DNA of 24,161 nt from Patescibacteria group bacterium (lineage in GTDB: Bacteria > Methylomirabilota > Methylomirabilia > Methylomirabilales > Methylomirabilaceae): assembly GCA_035561835.1 (NCBI GenBank), contig DATMXF010000229.1, positions 1 through 24,161 on the forward strand. The letters run 5' to 3'. The notes under the pieces were generated by a model. It saw only the letters and a program-made list of their open reading frames with translations. It did no database searches and had not been told where the DNA came from. Each line of letters begins with the position of its first letter. Within the stretch, counting starts at the first letter, position 1. This document shows, piece after piece, positions 10,900 through 19,399 of the stretch. The translations under genes were made by a program, and so were the position numbers.

Positions 10900-11018
10900 A
10901 GCCACCAACTCAAGCTACGTGCCAAAAACTCACGCTGATGCATTAGGCCTTATTGTGTCTGCTGTGTAGCTTACCGGTGGCGAAAATGAAGCGTCTGCTT
11001 ATCCTCTGAATGGAGAGA

Positions 11019-12274: not shown

Positions 12275-14701
12275 TTAGAAGGCCTCGTCGCCGGCAGCCC
12301 AAGTCTCCCGCTCCTTCGCCTTCTCCTTGTCGTAGATGGTCCATTCACCTTCCTCGACAACAGAGGCTTCGCGGACCATCCGCCCTGCTCTTGACAGAAT
12401 GAAATAGGCGAGAGGCAACACGCCGCCAAAGAGGAAGATCGCGCCGCCGATCGTGCGCATCCACGTCAAGGTGATCCACACGCTATCCGTGACGTGCGCC
12501 TGTGCTCGGGCAGCCCAAAGTCCTTGCTTGAAGACGGTCGAAACCTGGTACAGACCGACAGGGAACAGGTCCAACATCATCATCAGCACCAGGCCGACCT
12601 GCAACGACCAGAAGATCCCCTTGATCAGCTTCTCATTCCAGGCAGAGCGCTGGAACAGGTGCTGGCAGGCAAACAGCATACCGGCGATGGCGATGTTACC
12701 CTTGACGCCGAACATGGCGGCATGGGCATGGTTGCCGGTAAGATAGGTGCCGTGCTCATAGTAGTTGACGATGGGCAGGTTGATCAACGAGCCGAAGACG
12801 CCCGCGCCAAAGATGTTCCAGAAGTTGACGGCGAGGATGAACGTCCAGACGCCGTCCATCACGAAGCGCTGCTTGCCCTCGGCAATGTTTTCATGGGCCT
12901 TCGACCGCTCCGTCCGCATCTTCCAGGCGTCCAGGGTGATCAACAGCAGCGGCAGCACCTGCATGGTGGAGAAGACGCTACCCAGTGCGATGATTCCTGT
13001 CGGCTTGGCGATCCAGTAGAAGTTGTGGGAGATGCCGATCAGGGCGGTCACCAGGAACATCATGACGGCCAGGAAGATAACCCGCTCGGCCATCGCCCGG
13101 TTGACCAGACCCATCTGCACCAGCATGTACCCAACGATACAGGTGGTGAAGACCTCGAAGGTCACCTCAACCCACATATGAATGTTCATCCACCGCCAGT
13201 AGTCCGCGATGGCGAAGTTCTGCGACGGGGTCATGAACATCCCGAAGAACAGGAACAGCACCATGATCCCGCTGCCGTAGAACAGCCAAGCCGGCACCGA
13301 CCAGAGGTTCTGGCTGGTGATCCAGGGCTTTACGGCGCGGAAGATGATGTAGACCCACAGACAGAACGATGCCAGCATCAGGATGTGCCAGAAGCGGCCG
13401 AGCTCCAGGAACTCCCACCCTTGGCTGCCGAACCAGTAGGCCATGTCGTCGCTAAAGAACCCTGTGTGGCCGAGGTAAATGCCAAACAGCGCGCCGGCGC
13501 CTACGATAAGACACAGCGTAAAGAGCAGGTTGATCAGGAACCGCTGCCCGTTGGGCACCTTCGAAATGCGGGGCAGGAAGAAGAGGGTGTAGCCGACCCA
13601 CGCCATAAAGAACCAGTAAATCTGGACGATGGTATGCCAGCCCCGGGTGACGGTAAAGGGGATAGTAAACCCTAACACTGTTGTAGCGAGGGCGCTACCC
13701 GGTCCACCACCGACGAAATCTTCGGCGCTCAGGATACCTGCCAGGACCTGGACCAGGAACAGGATGACAGCGAAGGCAAAGAACTTATAGGTGGCACGCT
13801 GTGTCGGTCGCACGTAAGCGTCGCCCTTGTTTTCCAGGTCGACCGTGGTGAGCGACCAATCCCGCCCATTGAACGGCTCGCCGGGCAGGGCCTTCATTTC
13901 GCCGTACACGTACAGGACCAGCATGGTACCGCAGAACAGCACAAAGATCGAGATAAAGCTCCAGAGATAGGTCTCAAACGTCGGGGTATTCCCGACTATC
14001 GGGTCGGGCGGCCAGTTGTGAGTGTAGGTATAGTCGAAACCCGGCCGATTCGCCCCGGACACCCAGCCTCCCCAGAAGAAATAGCCTGCTAGGGCCTTGA
14101 GATCTGCTGTGTTGCTGATATGATTTTCGATCCTCCCTTTCATGAAGGCTTCTTCATAGGTGGCATCCGTAAACATCCGGGTGTAGTGCGTGATCAACTC
14201 CTGATACGCAAAGACCTGAGCCGGATTGATACGGATGATGTTGGCAGCCGCATCATACCCGTTCTCATGGATTTCGCGCCTGACCCTGACCGAGATCATA
14301 TCACGGTCGGCTTGAGTGACAGGACGCTCCTTCGCGATCTCATTTTCGTAGAACTTGCTCATCGATACATAGGTATGGTGTAGCGCTTCAGCGGTGAAAT
14401 CCGGTCCGCGCTCACCACCGTCGCCCCAGAAAGAGCCATACGTCATCAGGCCCTTCAAGTGAAAGATCTGTTTTCCACGCTGGATCTCCCATTCGGGGAT
14501 GACGGTTTCTCCAGTGGTTGACAACACATAATTGGTCAATGGCGGAGCTGAGGTATAAGTCCAGACGCCCAAGGCAACCAAACCAATAACGCTGATAACG
14601 GTAACGATCAGGGCATGAAGCCACCAATACTTCTTGATCAGCAATGCTTGCCCGAATGTCCTATTAGTTTTCCCCATACCGCCGCTTGCAGTAGATTTCA
14701 T
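12275..14701 (-). CDS. nod: qNOR-family heme-copper oxidase, paralog 1 (808 aa), with putative nitric oxide dismutase (Nod)-type substitutions
   Basis: GGAGGTAACAATG is the start context. The architecture is qNOR-like: one N-terminal TM helix, a heme-free periplasmic domain, then a NorB-like core. Retained motifs: RGWH, NIHMWVEV, NHAHAAMFG. Altered motifs: SHNFYW instead of an HH pair (AAC at 13022-13024), SVFSTMQVLPL with Q instead of E (CAG at 12959-12961), and AEDFVGGGPG where qNORs have AHYxxE. Confidence 0.9.
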   Translation of the reverse strand: MKSTASGGMGKTNRTFGQALLIKKYWWLHALIVTVISVIGLVALGVWTYTSAPPLTNYVLSTTGETVIPEWEIQRGKQIFHLKGLMTYGSFWGDGGERGPDFTAEALHHTYVSMSKFYENEIAKERPVTQADRDMISVRVRREIHENGYDAAANIIRINPAQVFAYQELITHYTRMFTDATYEEAFMKGRIENHISNTADLKALAGYFFWGGWVSGANRPGFDYTYTHNWPPDPIVGNTPTFETYLWSFISIFVLFCGTMLVLYVYGEMKALPGEPFNGRDWSLTTVDLENKGDAYVRPTQRATYKFFAFAVILFLVQVLAGILSAEDFVGGGPGSALATTVLGFTIPFTVTRGWHTIVQIYWFFMAWVGYTLFFLPRISKVPNGQRFLINLLFTLCLIVGAGALFGIYLGHTGFFSDDMAYWFGSQGWEFLELGRFWHILMLASFCLWVYIIFRAVKPWITSQNLWSVPAWLFYGSGIMVLFLFFGMFMTPSQNFAIADYWRWMNIHMWVEVTFEVFTTCIVGYMLVQMGLVNRAMAERVIFLAVMMFLVTALIGISHNFYWIAKPTGIIALGSVFSTMQVLPLLLITLDAWKMRTERSKAHENIAEGKQRFVMDGVWTFILAVNFWNIFGAGVFGSLINLPIVNYYEHGTYLTGNHAHAAMFGVKGNIAIAGMLFACQHLFQRSAWNEKLIKGIFWSLQVGLVLMMMLDLFPVGLYQVSTVFKQGLWAARAQAHVTDSVWITLTWMRTIGGAIFLFGGVLPLAYFILSRAGRMVREASVVEEGEWTIYDKEKAKERETWAAGDEAF

Positions 14702-14760: not shown

Positions 14761-14925
14761 CTACTCCTTACAATCTTGCCATCTTGGTACCGTTATCGCC
14801 CAAGGCCTCGGGGGCGCACGCACTTCCTGGTCAGCAAAAGGCAGACCGCCGCTTTGCCACCGGAAGCCTGGCCGACCACACGGTAACCCTTTGCTCAGCT
14901 TATCGACCCACGTCATAAGTTTCAT
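14761..14925 (-). CDS. Candidate 54-codon upstream ORF / leader peptide of paralog 1 (low confidence)
   Basis: GGAGGA lies 9 nt upstream of the ATG at 14925, and the stop is TAG at 14761-14763. The peptide is MKLMTWVDKLSKGLPCGRPGFRWQSGGLPFADQEVRAPPRPWAITVPRWQDCKE. It is partly conserved, in frame, with a counterpart upstream of paralog 2. Confidence 0.25.
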   Translation of the reverse strand: MKLMTWVDKLSKGLPCGRPGFRWQSGGLPFADQEVRAPPRPWAITVPRWQDCKE

Positions 14926-14993
14926 GAGGCACGTTCCTCCTTGCTTTCAAGGTCATCAGCTTACAGTCAAAGCGTAGGCTCTCCAGCAGGGCC

Positions 14994-15036
14994 TGTAAAT
15001 CAGATGATCAACTTAATTTTCAATGCAAATGCATTA
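14994..15036 (-). promoter_or_regulatory. Conserved upstream element of paralog 1 (TTTACA -35-like hexamer plus ATGCA-AA-TGCAT dyad)
   Basis: The plus-strand sequence GTAAATCAGATGATCAACTTAATTTTCAATGCAAATGCATTAG is related to the two repeats upstream of paralog 2. It contains a 14-bp perfect palindrome, AATGCAAATGCATT (15022-15035). Confidence 0.35.
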
Positions 15037-15207
15037 GTCGTCCAGGAGGATTACCCGGCCGGTGAACATTTTTCACGCTTGCCGGCCTTAGAGACGGCTA
15101 CTCACTGCCAGAGACAGAACGCCCCGGGCGTCTGCCCGCGGGGCCGAAGTTCTTCTTCATCTTTTTGAGTAACCGATAAACTGCGCCAGAGCACCATCGT
15201 TCGTTAT

Positions 15208-15234
15208 TATTAGTAGAACCCTGTTCTACTAATA
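15208..15234. promoter_or_regulatory. Perfect 12-3-12 AT-rich palindrome (candidate operator or hairpin)
   Basis: TATTAGTAGAAC (15208-15219), CCT, GTTCTACTAATA (15223-15234). Confidence 0.4.
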
Positions 15235-15237
15235 TAC

Positions 15238-15266
15238 AATATAGCGCAAAGCTCCCCCTGAGGCAA
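15238..15266 (-). promoter_or_regulatory. Sigma70-like promoter candidate (TTGCCT-N17-TATATT, minus strand)
   Basis: The -35 is the complement of 15261-15266 and the -10 is the complement of 15238-15243. The predicted start falls at the edge of the 15208-15234 palindrome. Confidence 0.3.
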
Positions 15267-15496: not shown

Positions 15497-17932
15497 CTAG
15501 AAGGCCTCATCAGAAGCGGCCCAAGCCTCTCGCTCCTTCGCCTTCTCTCTGTCGTAGATCGTCCACTCGCCCTCTTCAACAACGGCAGCTTCGCGGACCA
15601 TCCGTCCAGCCCTCGACAGAATGAACCAACACAGAGGCACAACACCACCGAAGAGGAAGATCGCGCCGCCGATTGACCGAAGCCAAGTCAGCGTGTGCCA
15701 TACCTCGTTGGTGACGAACGACTGCTGGCGGCCATACCAGAACCCATACTGGAAGATGTGGGCGAGCTGATACAGACCAACCGGGAACATATCCATGAGC
15801 ATCATCATCACGATGCCGGCCTGCAGGGACCAGAAGACAGTCTTGATCAGCTTCTCATTCCAGGCAGAGCGCTGGAACAGGTGCTGGCAGGCAAACAGCA
15901 TACCGGCGATGGCGATGTTACCCTTGACGCCGAACATGGCGCCATGGGCATGGTTGTTGGTGAGATAGGTGCCGTGCTCATAGTAGTTGACGATGGGCAG
16001 GTTGATCAACGAGCCCATGACGCCGGCACCGAAGATGTTCCAGAAGTTGACGGCGAGGATGAACGTCCAGACGCCGTCCATCACGAAGCGCTGCTTGCCC
16101 TCAGAAAGGTGCTCATGGGCCTTGGTCCGCTCCGTCCGCATCTTCCAGGCATCCAGGGTGATCAACAGCAGCGGCAGCACCTGCATGGTGGAGAAGACGC
16201 TACCCAGTGCGATGATTCCTGTCGGCTTGGCGATCCAGTAGAAGTTGTGGGAGATCCCGATCAGGGCGGTCACCAGGAACATCATGACGGCCAGGAAGAT
16301 AACCCGCTCGGCCATGGCCCGGTTGACCAGACCCATCTGCACCAGCATGTACCCAACGATACAGGTAGTGAAGACCTCGAAGGTGACCTCAACCCACATA
16401 TGGATGTTCATCCACCGCCAGTAGTCGGAGATGGCGAAGTTCTGTGACGGGGTCATGAACATCCCAAAGAACAGGAACAGCACCATGATCCCGCTGCCGT
16501 AGAACAGCCAAGCCGGTACCGACCAGAGGTTCTGGCTGGTGATCCAGGGCTTGACGGCGCGGAAGATGATGTAGACCCACAGACAGAACGAGGACAGCAT
16601 CAGGATGTGCCAGAAGCGGCCCAGCTCCAGGAACTCCCAGCCCTGGCTGCCGAACCAGTAGGCCATGTCGTCGGTCAGCATACCGGTGTGGCCGGCATAA
16701 ATCCCAAACAGCGCACCGGCGCCGACGAGCACGCACAGCGCAAAGAGCAGGTTGATCAGGAACCGCTGCCCGCTTGGTACCTTCGAAATTCGGGGCAGGA
16801 AGAAGAGGGTGTAGCCGACCCAGGCCATGAAGAACCAGTAGATCTGGACGATAGCATGATAGCTTCGGACGACGCTGAAGGGGATGACGAGTCCGAACGC
16901 GCCCAAGATCGTTTCACCAGGTCCACCGCCGACGAAATCCTCGGCGCCCAGGATACCGGCCAGTACCTGCACCAGGAACAGGATGACAGCGAAGGCAAAG
17001 AACTTATAGGTGGCGCGCTGGGTCGGTCGAACGTAGGCATCGCCCTTGTTTTCAAGGTCGACCGTGGTGAGCGACCAATCGCGCCCGTTGAACGGCTCGC
17101 CGGGCAGGGACTTCATTTCGCCGTAGACGTACAGGACCAGCATGGTGCCAGCGAACAGCACGAGGATCGAGAGGAAGCTCCAGATGTACGTCGCGTACGT
17201 CGGGAGGTTGCCGGCGTCAGGATCATACGGCCAGTTATGGGTATAGCTGTAGATCTCGCCCGGTCGATTCGCGCCGGCTACCCAGCCGCCCCAGAAGAAG
17301 TAACCCGCCAATCCCTTGATGTCCTCCGGGTTGCTGATGTAGCTCTTGATCCGACCCTTCTGGAATGCCTCTTCATAGGTGGGATCGGTGAACATCTTAG
17401 TGTAATGATCGACCAATTCATTATATGCAAAGATCTGGGCGTCGTTCAGGCGGATGACGCCTGCGGCTGCGTCATAACCGTTCTGATGAATCTCTCGCTT
17501 GACCTTTCCCGCGATCCCGTCCTTCTCGTCCTGGGTTGCGGGGCGGCCCTGCTCTTTCTCGATCTGCATCTCATAGTGCTTGCCCATGGAGACGAAGGTT
17601 CGATGCAGAGCTTCTGCGGTGAAATCCGGTCCGCGCTCTGCGCCGTCACCCCAGAAGGATCCGTAGAGCATCAGACCCTTCAGATGAAACACCTGCTTTC
17701 CACGATTCATGGAATACTCAGGAATAACGACTTCCCCGCTCTTCGCCGATACGAAATTAACCAGAGGGGGAGCGCCGGCGTAGGTCCAGACGCCAAGCGC
17801 AATCAATCCGATAACGCTGATTGCAGTGACGATCAAAGCATGAAGCCACCAATACTTCTTGATGAGTAGTACTTGTGCAAATGTCCTCTCGTTCTTGCCC
17901 TTTGCCGCAGTTCCGCTGGGATTCGGACTCAT
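15497..17932 (-). CDS. nod: qNOR-family heme-copper oxidase, paralog 2 (811 aa from ATG 17932), with putative nitric oxide dismutase (Nod)-type substitutions
   Basis: I moved the start from the track's 17971 to the ATG at 17932, which has the same GGAGGTAACAATG context as paralog 1. It has the same motif set: RSYH, NIHMWVEV, NHAHGAMFG, SHNFYW (AAC at 16244-16246), SVFSTMQVLPL (CAG at 16181-16183) and AEDFVGGGPG (16916-16948). Confidence 0.9.
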   Translation of the reverse strand: MSPNPSGTAAKGKNERTFAQVLLIKKYWWLHALIVTAISVIGLIALGVWTYAGAPPLVNFVSAKSGEVVIPEYSMNRGKQVFHLKGLMLYGSFWGDGAERGPDFTAEALHRTFVSMGKHYEMQIEKEQGRPATQDEKDGIAGKVKREIHQNGYDAAAGVIRLNDAQIFAYNELVDHYTKMFTDPTYEEAFQKGRIKSYISNPEDIKGLAGYFFWGGWVAGANRPGEIYSYTHNWPYDPDAGNLPTYATYIWSFLSILVLFAGTMLVLYVYGEMKSLPGEPFNGRDWSLTTVDLENKGDAYVRPTQRATYKFFAFAVILFLVQVLAGILGAEDFVGGGPGETILGAFGLVIPFSVVRSYHAIVQIYWFFMAWVGYTLFFLPRISKVPSGQRFLINLLFALCVLVGAGALFGIYAGHTGMLTDDMAYWFGSQGWEFLELGRFWHILMLSSFCLWVYIIFRAVKPWITSQNLWSVPAWLFYGSGIMVLFLFFGMFMTPSQNFAISDYWRWMNIHMWVEVTFEVFTTCIVGYMLVQMGLVNRAMAERVIFLAVMMFLVTALIGISHNFYWIAKPTGIIALGSVFSTMQVLPLLLITLDAWKMRTERTKAHEHLSEGKQRFVMDGVWTFILAVNFWNIFGAGVMGSLINLPIVNYYEHGTYLTNNHAHGAMFGVKGNIAIAGMLFACQHLFQRSAWNEKLIKTVFWSLQAGIVMMMLMDMFPVGLYQLAHIFQYGFWYGRQQSFVTNEVWHTLTWLRSIGGAIFLFGGVVPLCWFILSRAGRMVREAAVVEEGEWTIYDREKAKEREAWAASDEAF

Positions 17933-17954
17933 TGTTACCTCCCGTGGCTCGACC

Positions 17955-18134
17955 TCATTTGAGGTGACCACCTTGCATTGTTATTACCGTGCCGTCTTGA
18001 GTTGGGATGATCCCATCCACCGGGGGCGCACGCGCTTCGCGAACAGTCCGCAGAGCGCGGGTGAGACGGCAACCGCCTGTTCGAACAGGCGGTGCCCCGC
18101 TACACTGCTTATCGATTCTCATCATACGGTCCAT
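17955..18134 (-). CDS. Candidate 59-codon upstream ORF / leader peptide of paralog 2 (low confidence)
   Basis: GAGGAGG lies 8 nt upstream of the ATG at 18134, and the stop is TGA at 17955-17957. The peptide is MDRMMRIDKQCSGAPPVRTGGCRLTRALRTVREARAPPVDGIIPTQDGTVITMQGGHLK. It shares M1, M4, I/V7-D8-K9, G13, P15, R18, G20 and E-x-RAPP with the paralog 1 uORF. Confidence 0.25.
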   Translation of the reverse strand: MDRMMRIDKQCSGAPPVRTGGCRLTRALRTVREARAPPVDGIIPTQDGTVITMQGGHLK

Positions 18135-18180
18135 GGGGAACGCCTCCTCTGCGCCAATCTTGCGATCCCCTGTAGGCTTT

Positions 18181-18290
18181 GTAAATCCTGCGAATGAATC
18201 AATCCGCGATGCATATGTACTATACTATTTACTATGCTCTGTGAGACTCGTAAATCCTGCGATTGACTCAATATGGTGATGCATATGCAC
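18181..18290. promoter_or_regulatory. Two ~40-nt direct repeats (69-nt period) upstream of paralog 2, carrying short dyads
   Basis: Repeat 1 is 18181-18220, GTAAATCCTGCGAATGAATCAATCCGCGATGCATATGTAC. Repeat 2 is 18250-18290, GTAAATCCTGCGATTGACTCAATATGGTGATGCATATGCAC. Dyads: ATTGACTCAAT (18262-18272) and TGCATATGCA (18280-18289). Confidence 0.45.
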
Positions 18291-18502
18291 CACTCGCTGA
18301 GGTCTTAGCCAAGATCCGGAGACTCGATGAGGACAAAACATATCAAACAGTGTTTATTCGGTCACGCGGTAATCCAACGATCTGGTGGTCGGTCCATGGC
18401 ATGGCGCTTACCAAAACTACGTTCTCCAGAACAGCATTATGATCCACAGAAGAACTGATCCTTACTATACTATATTTGAATGAATCGTTTCGTCCGCGCC
18501 TA

Positions 18503-19399
18503 TCACGCTGCCTTGTGGGGCTCCTTCGTAGCCCCTGGCGCCTGTCCTGCCTCCGCGTGAGCCGCAGGCTCACGCCGCGCAATCTCGTTCACGTAGGCGA
18601 CAGCCTCCAGTCGTGTGTGGACCTTGAGCTTACTGAAGATGTTCTGGATGTGGTTTCTCACTGTAGTTTTACTGATGAAAAGCTGCTCCGCGATAGCCGC
18701 CGTCGTTGCGCCGGTCCGCATCAGGGTAACAACCTGCAACTCCCGCCGAGTTAAGTCACCGACAGGAGATACGGTCTTCTCACTCGCCGTAAGCTGAGTC
18801 TGAGCCAGTTGTTGGCGAACGAGCACCTCAAGCTGGTGCGCCGAGGTGACATCACGGAAGAGATGAACAACTGTCGGGGGCTGGTTATCCTCACAGGGAA
18901 GAGCAACACAGCTCACGTCGATCCACAGCGGTTTACCCGTCCTCGTCCGAGTAGCCATCTCGAAATGCTGGATCAGATCGCCGCGGCTCAACGTCATTTT
19001 CAGTGGGCAAGGCCACTGGCAAAGCTGATTGCCATTACTATCACGGCCGTTGAAGAACTCACGGCATTGCTGTCCGACCACTTGTTGCGCAGAAGCTTCC
19101 AGGATAGTTTCAGCGGCCCGGTTGCAGAACAGAATCTCTCCAGTCGGCGCACTGACAAACACACCGTCGGCCGTCTCCGCGAAAAGCTTGAAGGCAGCTT
19201 CGCGTGGTTCCGTAGGCTGTACGCTTTCCGGCTCGCTTCGCGAATCCTTTTCCTCAACTGCAGGTGTAAGCCGATGCTCGTTTTCCTCGTCGTCTATAAG
19301 GTAGTCCACTGCCTCGCCTGTCCGGACACCGCCATCACGCCGCAGGCCTGCCCCTGGGATTCGCACCGAACGTTTCGGCCCGTTGCCTGAATGCGCCAT
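18503..19399 (-). CDS. PAS-domain / LuxR-type HTH transcriptional regulator
   Basis: The C-terminal LuxR/GerE HTH is LTRRELQVVTLMRTGATTAAIAEQLFISKTTVRNHIQNIFSKLKV. The central PAS-like segment is FKLFAETADGVFVSAPTGEILFCNRAAETIL...VVHLFRDVT. There is no receiver or kinase domain. Confidence 0.8.
   Translation of the reverse strand: MAHSGNGPKRSVRIPGAGLRRDGGVRTGEAVDYLIDDEENEHRLTPAVEEKDSRSEPESVQPTEPREAAFKLFAETADGVFVSAPTGEILFCNRAAETILEASAQQVVGQQCREFFNGRDSNGNQLCQWPCPLKMTLSRGDLIQHFEMATRTRTGKPLWIDVSCVALPCEDNQPPTVVHLFRDVTSAHQLEVLVRQQLAQTQLTASEKTVSPVGDLTRRELQVVTLMRTGATTAAIAEQLFISKTTVRNHIQNIFSKLKVHTRLEAVAYVNEIARREPAAHAEAGQAPGATKEPHKAA

Follow-up and report, generated by a model that had tools for sequence, protein, structure and literature searches.

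A conserved promoter module upstream of both nod genes of a Methylomirabilaceae genome, with a neighbouring PAS-LuxR protein as its likely regulator

How are nod genes, the candidates for the O2-producing NO dismutation step in nitrite-dependent methane oxidation, switched on? Our literature search found nothing specific on nod promoters or on a nod regulator; a 2024 preprint records LuxR-type neighbours of nod and terms the link "unclear" (10.1101/2023.11.21.568154). The locus analysed here is an entire 24-kb contig (C229; 24,161 nt, hereafter the window) from a 2.26-Mb MAG that is 81% complete. Its minus strand carries, in order, a PAS-LuxR regulator gene, a leader ORF, nod2, a second leader ORF, nod1 and a cytochrome c gene (Table 1). 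The ordinary qNor of the same genome is 35% identical to nod2. On sequence evidence, we conclude that the units repeated upstream of nod1 and nod2 are a real, strongly conserved promoter module, and that the neighbouring PAS-LuxR protein is likely the switch for the nod genes.

The minus strand of the window carries three copies of a unit of approximately 70 nt: nod1 is preceded by one copy and nod2 by a tandem pair. An independent repeat search of the window returned a 44-nt direct repeat (18160-18203 and 18229-18272) at a spacing of 69 nt, and the 23-mer GTAAATCCTGCGAWTGAMTCAAT occurs twice, against zero expected from shuffles. TGCATWTGCA has two copies in the window (15024-15033 and 18280-18289), where 0.07 would be expected, and just one further copy in the 2.26-Mb genome (three sites in total). 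Within the tandem pair, the distance is 70 nt between the palindromes and 69 nt between the -35 words. A sequence-only covariance model of 28 Methylomirabilis units (the unit model) gave exactly three strong matches in the window, all on the minus strand, at 18226-18293, 18155-18222 and 14973-15036 (E 1e-20 to 5e-15). A sequence-only reading of this DNA had earlier described a repeated, three-part element upstream of both nod genes; every word that it quoted was found in place, the repeated element is confirmed, and its three-part anatomy is correct. The same reading had counted as relatives some fragments at 18463-18487, right after the regulator's stop, and ATGCATTAG at 10937-10945. Neither is matched by the unit model, and the latter is a lone TGCATCA half-word. 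The stretch 18463-18487 has an 11-mer (ATAGTATAGTA) and a 9-mer in common with the units and may be a decayed third copy, its conservation being limited to the closest relatives.

Read along the minus strand, each unit consists of a palindrome, a second block, a -35 hexamer and then a -10 hexamer. Positions are given on the assumption that TTTACR occupies -35 to -30. The palindrome is 16-18 bp long, has the 7-2-7 form TGATGCA-NN-TGCATCA (symmetrised half-site TGATGCA) and is centred near -65, namely at -64.5 in the nod1 and proximal nod2 units and at -65.5 in the distal nod2 unit. A constant 2 bp separates its two self-complementary TGCA cores (42 instances). Counted from the first T of the palindrome core, the second block, AWTGAGnCnATCGnnGGA, follows after 18-19 nt; it spans about -51 to -36, and TTTACR directly abuts it.

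Table 1. Features of the nod locus in the window; operators, promoter hexamers and gene control are predictions.
Feature	Coordinates	Strand	Remarks
PAS-LuxR (GerE HTH) one-component regulator, 298 aa	18503..19399	-	Pfam PAS + GerE; candidate binder of the palindromes
Distal nod2 palindrome, 18 bp, GTGGTGCATATGCATCAC	18276..18293	-	Core TGCA-TA-TGCA at 18280-18289; conserved in 11 species; putative operator
Distal nod2 second block, TGAGTCA-AT-CGCAGGA	18255..18270	-	Includes dyad ATTGAGTCAAT
Distal nod2 -35-like hexamer, TTTACG	18249..18254	-	GATTTAC in 10/11 distal units; TATTTAC in G011
Distal nod2 -10-like hexamer, TAAATA	18226..18231	-	17 nt after -35; last position not conserved
Proximal nod2 palindrome, ATAGTACATATGCATCGC	18206..18223	-	Core 18210-18219; one mismatch in left half
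Proximal nod2 second block, TGATTCA-TT-CGCAGGA	18186..18201	-	
Proximal nod2 -35 hexamer, TTTACA	18180..18185	-	Conserved
Proximal nod2 -10 hexamer, CAAGAT	18157..18162	-	17 nt after -35; CAnTAT in most orthologues
nod2, qNor-like, NO-dismutase type	15497..17971	-	Presumed controlled gene; preceded by leader ORF 17955-18134
nod1 palindrome, CTAATGCATTTGCATTGA	15020..15037	-	Core TGCA-TT-TGCA at 15024-15033
nod1 second block, TAAGTTG-AT-CATCTGA	15000..15015	-	Degenerate; AAWTnAG conserved
nod1 -35 hexamer, TTTACA	14994..14999	-	Conserved
nod1 -10 hexamer, TACGCT	14971..14976	-	17 nt after -35; TAnnnT in 8/8 orthologues
nod1, paralogue of nod2	12275..14701	-	Presumed controlled gene; preceded by leader ORF 14761-14925

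The second block had been described in the earlier reading as a short dyad. A true dyad is present in the distal nod2 unit, but elsewhere the family keeps its left part, AWTGAG, only. Boxes of the FNR/CRP type have the form TTGAT-N4-ATCAA and are centred near -41.5. The dyad ATTGAnTCAAT was rejected as such a box, its halves being 1 bp apart rather than 4 and its right half being unconserved outside the distal nod2 unit. The left part of the block, TGAGnCA, weakly resembles the half-site TGATGCA and lies 21-22 bp, or two turns, from the palindrome centre. A matrix of the half-site peaks exactly at the second block, with mean log-odds of -4.6 to -5.9 versus a random mean of -14. It is hypothesized that the block may be a second, weak dimer site beside the -35, with a matrix score that is still below zero; with so weak a half-site score, its reading as a second full operator is kept as no more than a hypothesis.

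The upstream regions of nod1 and nod2 are paralogous (72% identity over approximately 400 columns), so words shared between them are insufficient by themselves; what really tests the units is whether other species conserve them. The genus set comprised our own genome and 19 relatives, with nod present in our own and 12 relatives; footprint alignments were made of nod2 upstream regions from 11 species and nod1 upstream regions from eight. Across the 11 species, mean column identity is 0.93 for the distal and 0.86 for the proximal nod2 unit, versus 0.61 and 0.74, respectively, in the 150 columns upstream. The nod1 unit is retained in eight species at a mean identity of 0.75 versus 0.51 in the flank, and within it ATGCATTTGCAT is identical in 7/8 species (TTCGCAT in G010) amid DNA that is poorly alignable. 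Two units upstream of nod2 are the rule, with three in one relative (G011) and four in another (G003).

Paralogy and the 7-bp hairpin into which the palindrome could fold would both be accommodated if the units were neutral leftovers of nod and local tandem duplication, or a leader RNA hairpin, with no protein bound to them. We find this barely credible. Conservation far exceeds that of the flanks and extends across phyla in which neutral DNA would be randomised, which rules out a neutral duplication relic. The right palindrome half, ATGCAT, is invariant in 28/28 units while the left half varies among TGCAT, TACAT, TGTAT and TGAAT, and covariation within the palindrome equals that of shuffled columns (0.223 versus a shuffled mean of 0.224; paired cells 77.6% versus 78.0%), so an RNA hairpin was rejected. 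A terminator was likewise discarded, because the minus-strand interval from the regulator gene to nod2 contains no terminator-like site.

Downstream of the second block, TTTACR, a spacer of 17 (rarely 18) nt and TAnnnT recur in nearly all of the 42 aligned instances, including those from other phyla, and all three window units have hexamers and spacing of the sigma-70 type. Conservation thus supports the earlier proposal of TTTACA as the -35 and of TACGCT and CAAGAT as -10 candidates 17 nt away. In the proximal nod2 -10, A2 and T6, the key sigma-70 positions, are kept in most of the 11 species. In the distal -10, TA is conserved whereas the last T is not, so the distal unit may be mainly an extra binding site, and its activity as a promoter is uncertain. 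By hand count, the core promoters match the consensus at 8/12 positions and were missed by a consensus scan with a threshold of 9/12, as expected of factor-dependent promoters; their weakness had been remarked upon before and is borne out by these figures. The same scan picked the regulator's own promoter, TTGACA-17-TATATT. Transcription is predicted to start near 18150 (proximal nod2) and near 14964 (nod1), and any distal nod2 transcript near 18218-18221, at the edge of the proximal palindrome. The ATG of the nod2 leader ORF (18134) lies 16 nt downstream of the predicted proximal start, and its SD-ATG segment (AGGAGGCGTTCCCCATG) is almost invariant across the aligned species.

We consider it probable that these are activator-dependent promoters of the sigma-70 type, with the palindrome as the operator of the PAS-LuxR regulator. 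The position of the predicted distal start, abutting the proximal palindrome, would also suit a PAS-LuxR protein that binds as a repressor or roadblock, for example with the proximal palindrome blocking distal transcripts until a signal derepresses nod. Many one-component sensors do repress, and NO control of the NsrR type is by repression (PMC5320621). However, the palindrome of nod1, like that of every single-unit locus in other phyla, precedes the -35 and leaves the core and the start free; the cores are weak, and such a layout is typical for activation. Repression at these promoters therefore seems unlikely to us, and activation is favoured because the palindrome is upstream in all single-unit loci and the cores are weak.

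A motif scan of the whole genome, which the earlier reading had proposed, found units almost nowhere outside the nod loci: the unit model recovered the three nod units and one weak relative at C11:2900-2931. The bare words are not enriched genome-wide (TGCANNTGCA, 19 observed versus approximately 30 expected), and the remaining RTGCANNTGCAY sites of the genome lie within long ORFs or are without a second block. The C11 site, between the 3' end of a radical-SAM gene and a Usp gene, has a palindrome and second block without a -35 and is conserved in four species. Every strong model match in nod-bearing genomes of the genus is at nod loci, with three in most genomes. Full units were also found before a cytochrome c gene in one genome (G017), whose product is 47% identical to the one encoded downstream of nod1, and before a beta-propeller gene in another (G010). 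The module, nod and an orthologue of the regulator occur in the identical 13/20 genus genomes, the other seven being without all three, and the regulator orthologue adjoins nod2 in every genus genome with nod. We take this co-occurrence as consistency rather than as a test, because kin are not independent.

Beyond the genus, the module was sought by way of the regulator. Orthologues of the regulator in public records carry the name Candidatus Methylomirabilis, and homologues with 50-70% identity occur in MAGs labelled Acidobacteria, Delta-, Alpha- and Gammaproteobacteria and Bdellovibrionota, in contexts that hold nod-type or nirS genes. Beside regulator homologues (37-67% identity), the module or its palindrome was found in MAGs labelled Acidobacteria, Alpha-, Delta- and Gammaproteobacteria and other Methylomirabilia. 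In the contexts of the homologues with 50-70% identity, the unit model, although derived solely from Methylomirabilis, matched an acidobacterial locus (E 5e-9) and, directly before nod, an alphaproteobacterial locus (E 2e-7) and, weakly, a deltaproteobacterial locus (E 0.7); the nod genes of the latter two are 72% identical to nod2. The model was also run on 80 regulator loci from reference genomes (896 kb). It matched four acidobacterial loci, at which the module precedes a small GlutR_dimer-like gene and the regulator itself, a Solibacteraceae locus, at which genes for a rubrerythrin-like protein and a ferredoxin follow, and a gammaproteobacterial locus. Three Methylomirabilia loci outside Methylomirabilis were matched too; there the module directly follows the regulator and precedes a TetR / 2-hydroxyacyl-CoA-dehydratase operon. 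Loci of Anaerolineales and Chloroflexota with regulators of 37-38% identity carry GATGCA-NN-TGCATC within approximately 60 nt of the gene end, one of them at approximately 830 nt. Throughout the 896 kb, 15/20 copies of RTGCANNTGCAY lie within 700 bp of a regulator gene, and 11.7% of the sequence falls in that zone. One alphaproteobacterial locus (L089) also has an Rrf2 gene adjacent.

Adjacency to the regulator is partly by construction in these data, because most of the cross-phylum loci were fetched via the regulator; two regulator-independent scans, both small, were therefore added. Among 151 genomes of the phylum, only two matches were obtained outside the genus (G081 and G093), each within approximately 150 nt of a regulator homologue. 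An exact-pattern scan of metagenome contigs gave seven loci, 7/7 of which are complete modules with correctly placed -35 and -10 hexamers; the regulator lies approximately 460 nt downstream in 3/7. Rubrerythrin-like genes with 55% mutual identity follow two of the metagenome modules, and an LVIVD beta-propeller gene follows one. No homology was found between the beta-propeller targets of G010 and L176.

The earlier reading had named the adjacent PAS-LuxR protein as the obvious candidate for the controlling factor, and its shared presence in the same 13/20 genus genomes and its neighbouring position in other phyla uphold that choice of putative binder. If the palindrome were instead bound by another transcription factor encoded elsewhere, with the PAS-LuxR protein acting on a different target, modules without a nearby regulator and regulator homologues without a module would fit. 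Such modules exist (L172 and L176), for which action in trans must otherwise be assumed, and several regulator homologues of 50-58% identity (L102-L104 and L111) are without a module within 8 kb. We nevertheless regard a separate factor as improbable. Within the genus, regulator and module are always present or absent together. Regulators with 37-67% protein identity neighbour the module again in at least five phylum-level lineages, and both unbiased phylum matches adjoin the regulator. The geometry of the operator is, moreover, as expected for a dimer with a GerE HTH (PMC9774167). The HTH of the PAS-LuxR protein matches domain structures of the NarL/GerE type, and family members with as little as 34% identity keep its recognition helix, S/A-T-V/A-R-N-H-x-Q-x-I, which was called invariant in the family alignment; this fits one shared DNA target.

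The ATGCAT words had also prompted the suggestion of an NO-responsive operator of the NsrR/Rrf2 kind. The half-word GATGCAT is indeed common to the E. coli NsrR site AAGATGCATTT-A-AAATGCATCTT (PMC5320621), an NO-related physiological role is plausible in both cases, every complete genome of the genus encodes a single Rrf2 protein, and at L089, though at no other locus, an Rrf2 gene adjoins nod. Geometry speaks against the suggestion, which we did not retain and judge highly unlikely: the NsrR site is an 11-1-11 inverted repeat, AAGATGCATTT-n-AAATGCATCTT (e.g. AAGATGCATTTAAAATGCATCTT; PMC5320621), with ATGCAT hexamers 5 bp apart, whereas 2 bp separate the TGCA cores in 42/42 of our instances and the units contain no second AAATGCAT arm at the distance required by NsrR. 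In the complete genus genomes the Rrf2 gene is remote from nod, at a distance of more than 1 Mb in one of them, and it is represented in our own MAG only by a sub-threshold fragment, and no Rrf2 was found among the genes called at the acidobacterial or deltaproteobacterial module loci. NsrR also belongs to a different protein family and represses from sites over the core promoter (PMC5320621).

Returning to activation by the PAS-LuxR protein, we propose that a dimer would occupy the palindrome as a high-affinity operator approximately 65 bp upstream of the predicted start, while the second block, about two helical turns further downstream, would either take a weaker second dimer or position RNA polymerase. 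The bound regulator would then aid polymerase on the weak TTTACR-17-TAnnnT core, and nod1, nod2 and the leader ORF of each would be turned on together. The PAS domain is Cys-rich, with C112, C127 and C131 invariant in the family alignment, and would presumably adjust DNA binding to NO, O2 or redox state. Tandem units at nod2 (2-4 in relatives) would increase occupancy or output.

On balance, we incline to the view that these loci belong to an undescribed multi-phylum regulon in which a Cys-rich PAS-LuxR sensor, equipped with a 7-2-7 operator of its own (TGATGCA-NN-TGCATCA) and with promoters of fixed architecture, would travel with nod as a cassette and would also act on redox targets (rubrerythrin-like, cytochrome c, Usp and others). 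If so, its sensor would be the first identified nod regulator and possibly a new class of NO/O2 sensor. The candidate operator, sensor-regulator and predicted starts make nod regulation directly testable. The sequence model also finds putative co-regulated genes (rubrerythrin-like, cytochrome c, Usp and beta-propeller) that may work with Nod, and the module can serve as a marker for nod-type cassettes in metagenomes.

Among known systems, the PimM-type regulators of Streptomyces, the only characterised PAS-LuxR proteins, bind a 16-bp 7-2-7 palindrome, CTVGGGAWWTCCCBAG, and share with the present protein an N-terminal PAS domain, a C-terminal LuxR/GerE HTH and the lack of a receiver domain (PMC9774167). 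In both systems the palindrome comprises two heptamers 2 bp apart and the regulator is encoded beside its known or presumed targets; PimM is an activator. The half-sites differ, however (CTVGGGA in PimM versus TGATGCA here), and no unit resembles the PimM consensus, which would place the present operator in a different specificity class. PimM-type sites lie on the -35 whereas the strong palindrome here is near -65, the targets of PimM are polyene clusters rather than the NO dismutase-like, rubrerythrin-like and other redox genes presumed here, and the PAS domain here is distinguished by its three invariant Cys residues.

NarL/NarP sites are likewise built of 7-2-7 heptamers. The likeness extends to a GerE-type HTH, to inverted heptamers with a 2-bp spacer, to an association with genes of nitrogen-oxide respiration and to the frequent combination of several sites upstream of weak promoters, but NarL is a phosphorylated response regulator rather than a PAS one-component protein, and its heptamer, TACYYMT, is unrelated. 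Quorum-sensing boxes of the LuxR/TraR type are centred near -42.5. They too are palindromic and bind a dimer with a GerE HTH, which switches on a weak sigma-70 promoter, and their placement is comparable to that of our second block (-51 to -36); such boxes are, however, single, 18-20 bp long and overlap the -35, whereas our units have their best-conserved palindrome farther upstream by one to two turns. A weak sigma-70 promoter preceded by a LuxR-family operator is of a familiar kind. What appears to be new, as judged from sequence comparison, is the specific operator, the fixed architecture, the link to a Cys-rich PAS-LuxR protein and the spread of the module with nod across phyla.

The number of promoter units arrayed in tandem before nod2, counted as matches to the sequence model of these units, was found to differ among species, with four in G003, three in G011 and two in most others. 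A fourth member of the module family occurs elsewhere in the genome from which the window derives, where it retains the palindrome and the second block without the -35 element. This site, flanked on one side by the 3' end of a radical-SAM/SPASM gene and on the other by a Usp gene, is kept in three genus relatives (G004, G012 and G017), and in its inverted orientation it may control the Usp/phosphotransferase genes. By nhmmer, the contig carrying the window (C229) measures 24281 bases in the genome sequence, 120 more than the 24161-base window.

Coordinates of features in the window, its source genome, genus relatives and other lineages
Feature	Location	Strand	Remarks
Fourth module family member	own genome C11:2900-2931 (L086)	minus	palindrome and second block, no -35
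Four-unit array before nod2	G003:C318:1888-2158 (L009)		model matches
Three-unit array before nod2	G011:C18:12100-12388 (L006)		model matches
Near-consensus promoter, then AT-rich palindrome around GTTCTAC	window 15208-15266		TTGCCT-17-TATATT; ~175 nt upstream of nod1 unit
nod2 leader ORF SD-ATG	window 18134-18150		AGGAGGCGTTCCCCATG
Regulator gene	window 18503-19399	minus	298-aa PAS-LuxR protein
Paralogous PAS-LuxR protein	own genome C65:19844-20473		36% identity
Acidobacteria module locus	L096:772-1113		equivalents in L095, L097, L098
GTGCACGTGCACGTGCGT-like word	L095:9158, L097:6203, L098:9178, L099:8849		
Two GATGCA-NN-TGCATC palindromes	L154:8236-8276		22 bp apart

The promoter and AT-rich palindrome upstream of the nod1 unit are conserved across several species, with relatives displaying a TTGAC-type version of the promoter. 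This element may serve as a second nod1 promoter or as the source of a small transcript. Within the leaders, the nod2 leader ORF has an SD-ATG that is nearly invariant across 11 species, and the stretch GCGCGTGCGCCCCCG is common to the nod1 and nod2 leaders.

Three cysteines in the PAS domain of the regulator (Cys 112, 127 and 131; C-x14-C-x3-C) are invariant throughout the family, down to 46% identity, a pattern suggestive of a cofactor (metal or Fe-S) or of a thiol switch. The recognition helix of the paralogue (T-A-R-N-H-T-Q) is similar to that of the regulator, and no palindrome was found within ~1.5 kb of the paralogue.

At four Acidobacteria loci, the module precedes a gene for a ~100-aa protein that is followed by the regulator gene, an arrangement in which it would be predicted to drive both the small protein gene and the regulator itself. 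At loci from Acidobacteria and Deltaproteobacteria, the GTGCACGTGCACGTGCGT-like word is conserved 170-290 nt past the regulator gene and probably sits within a small gene on the opposite strand. At an Anaerolineales locus, the paired palindromes directly follow the regulator homologue and precede a formate-tetrahydrofolate ligase gene. The ~100-aa protein bears a weak likeness to the dimerisation domain of glutamyl-tRNA reductase, and a full hemA adjoins nod at another regulator-homologue locus (L090); together, these observations hint at a connection with haem synthesis.
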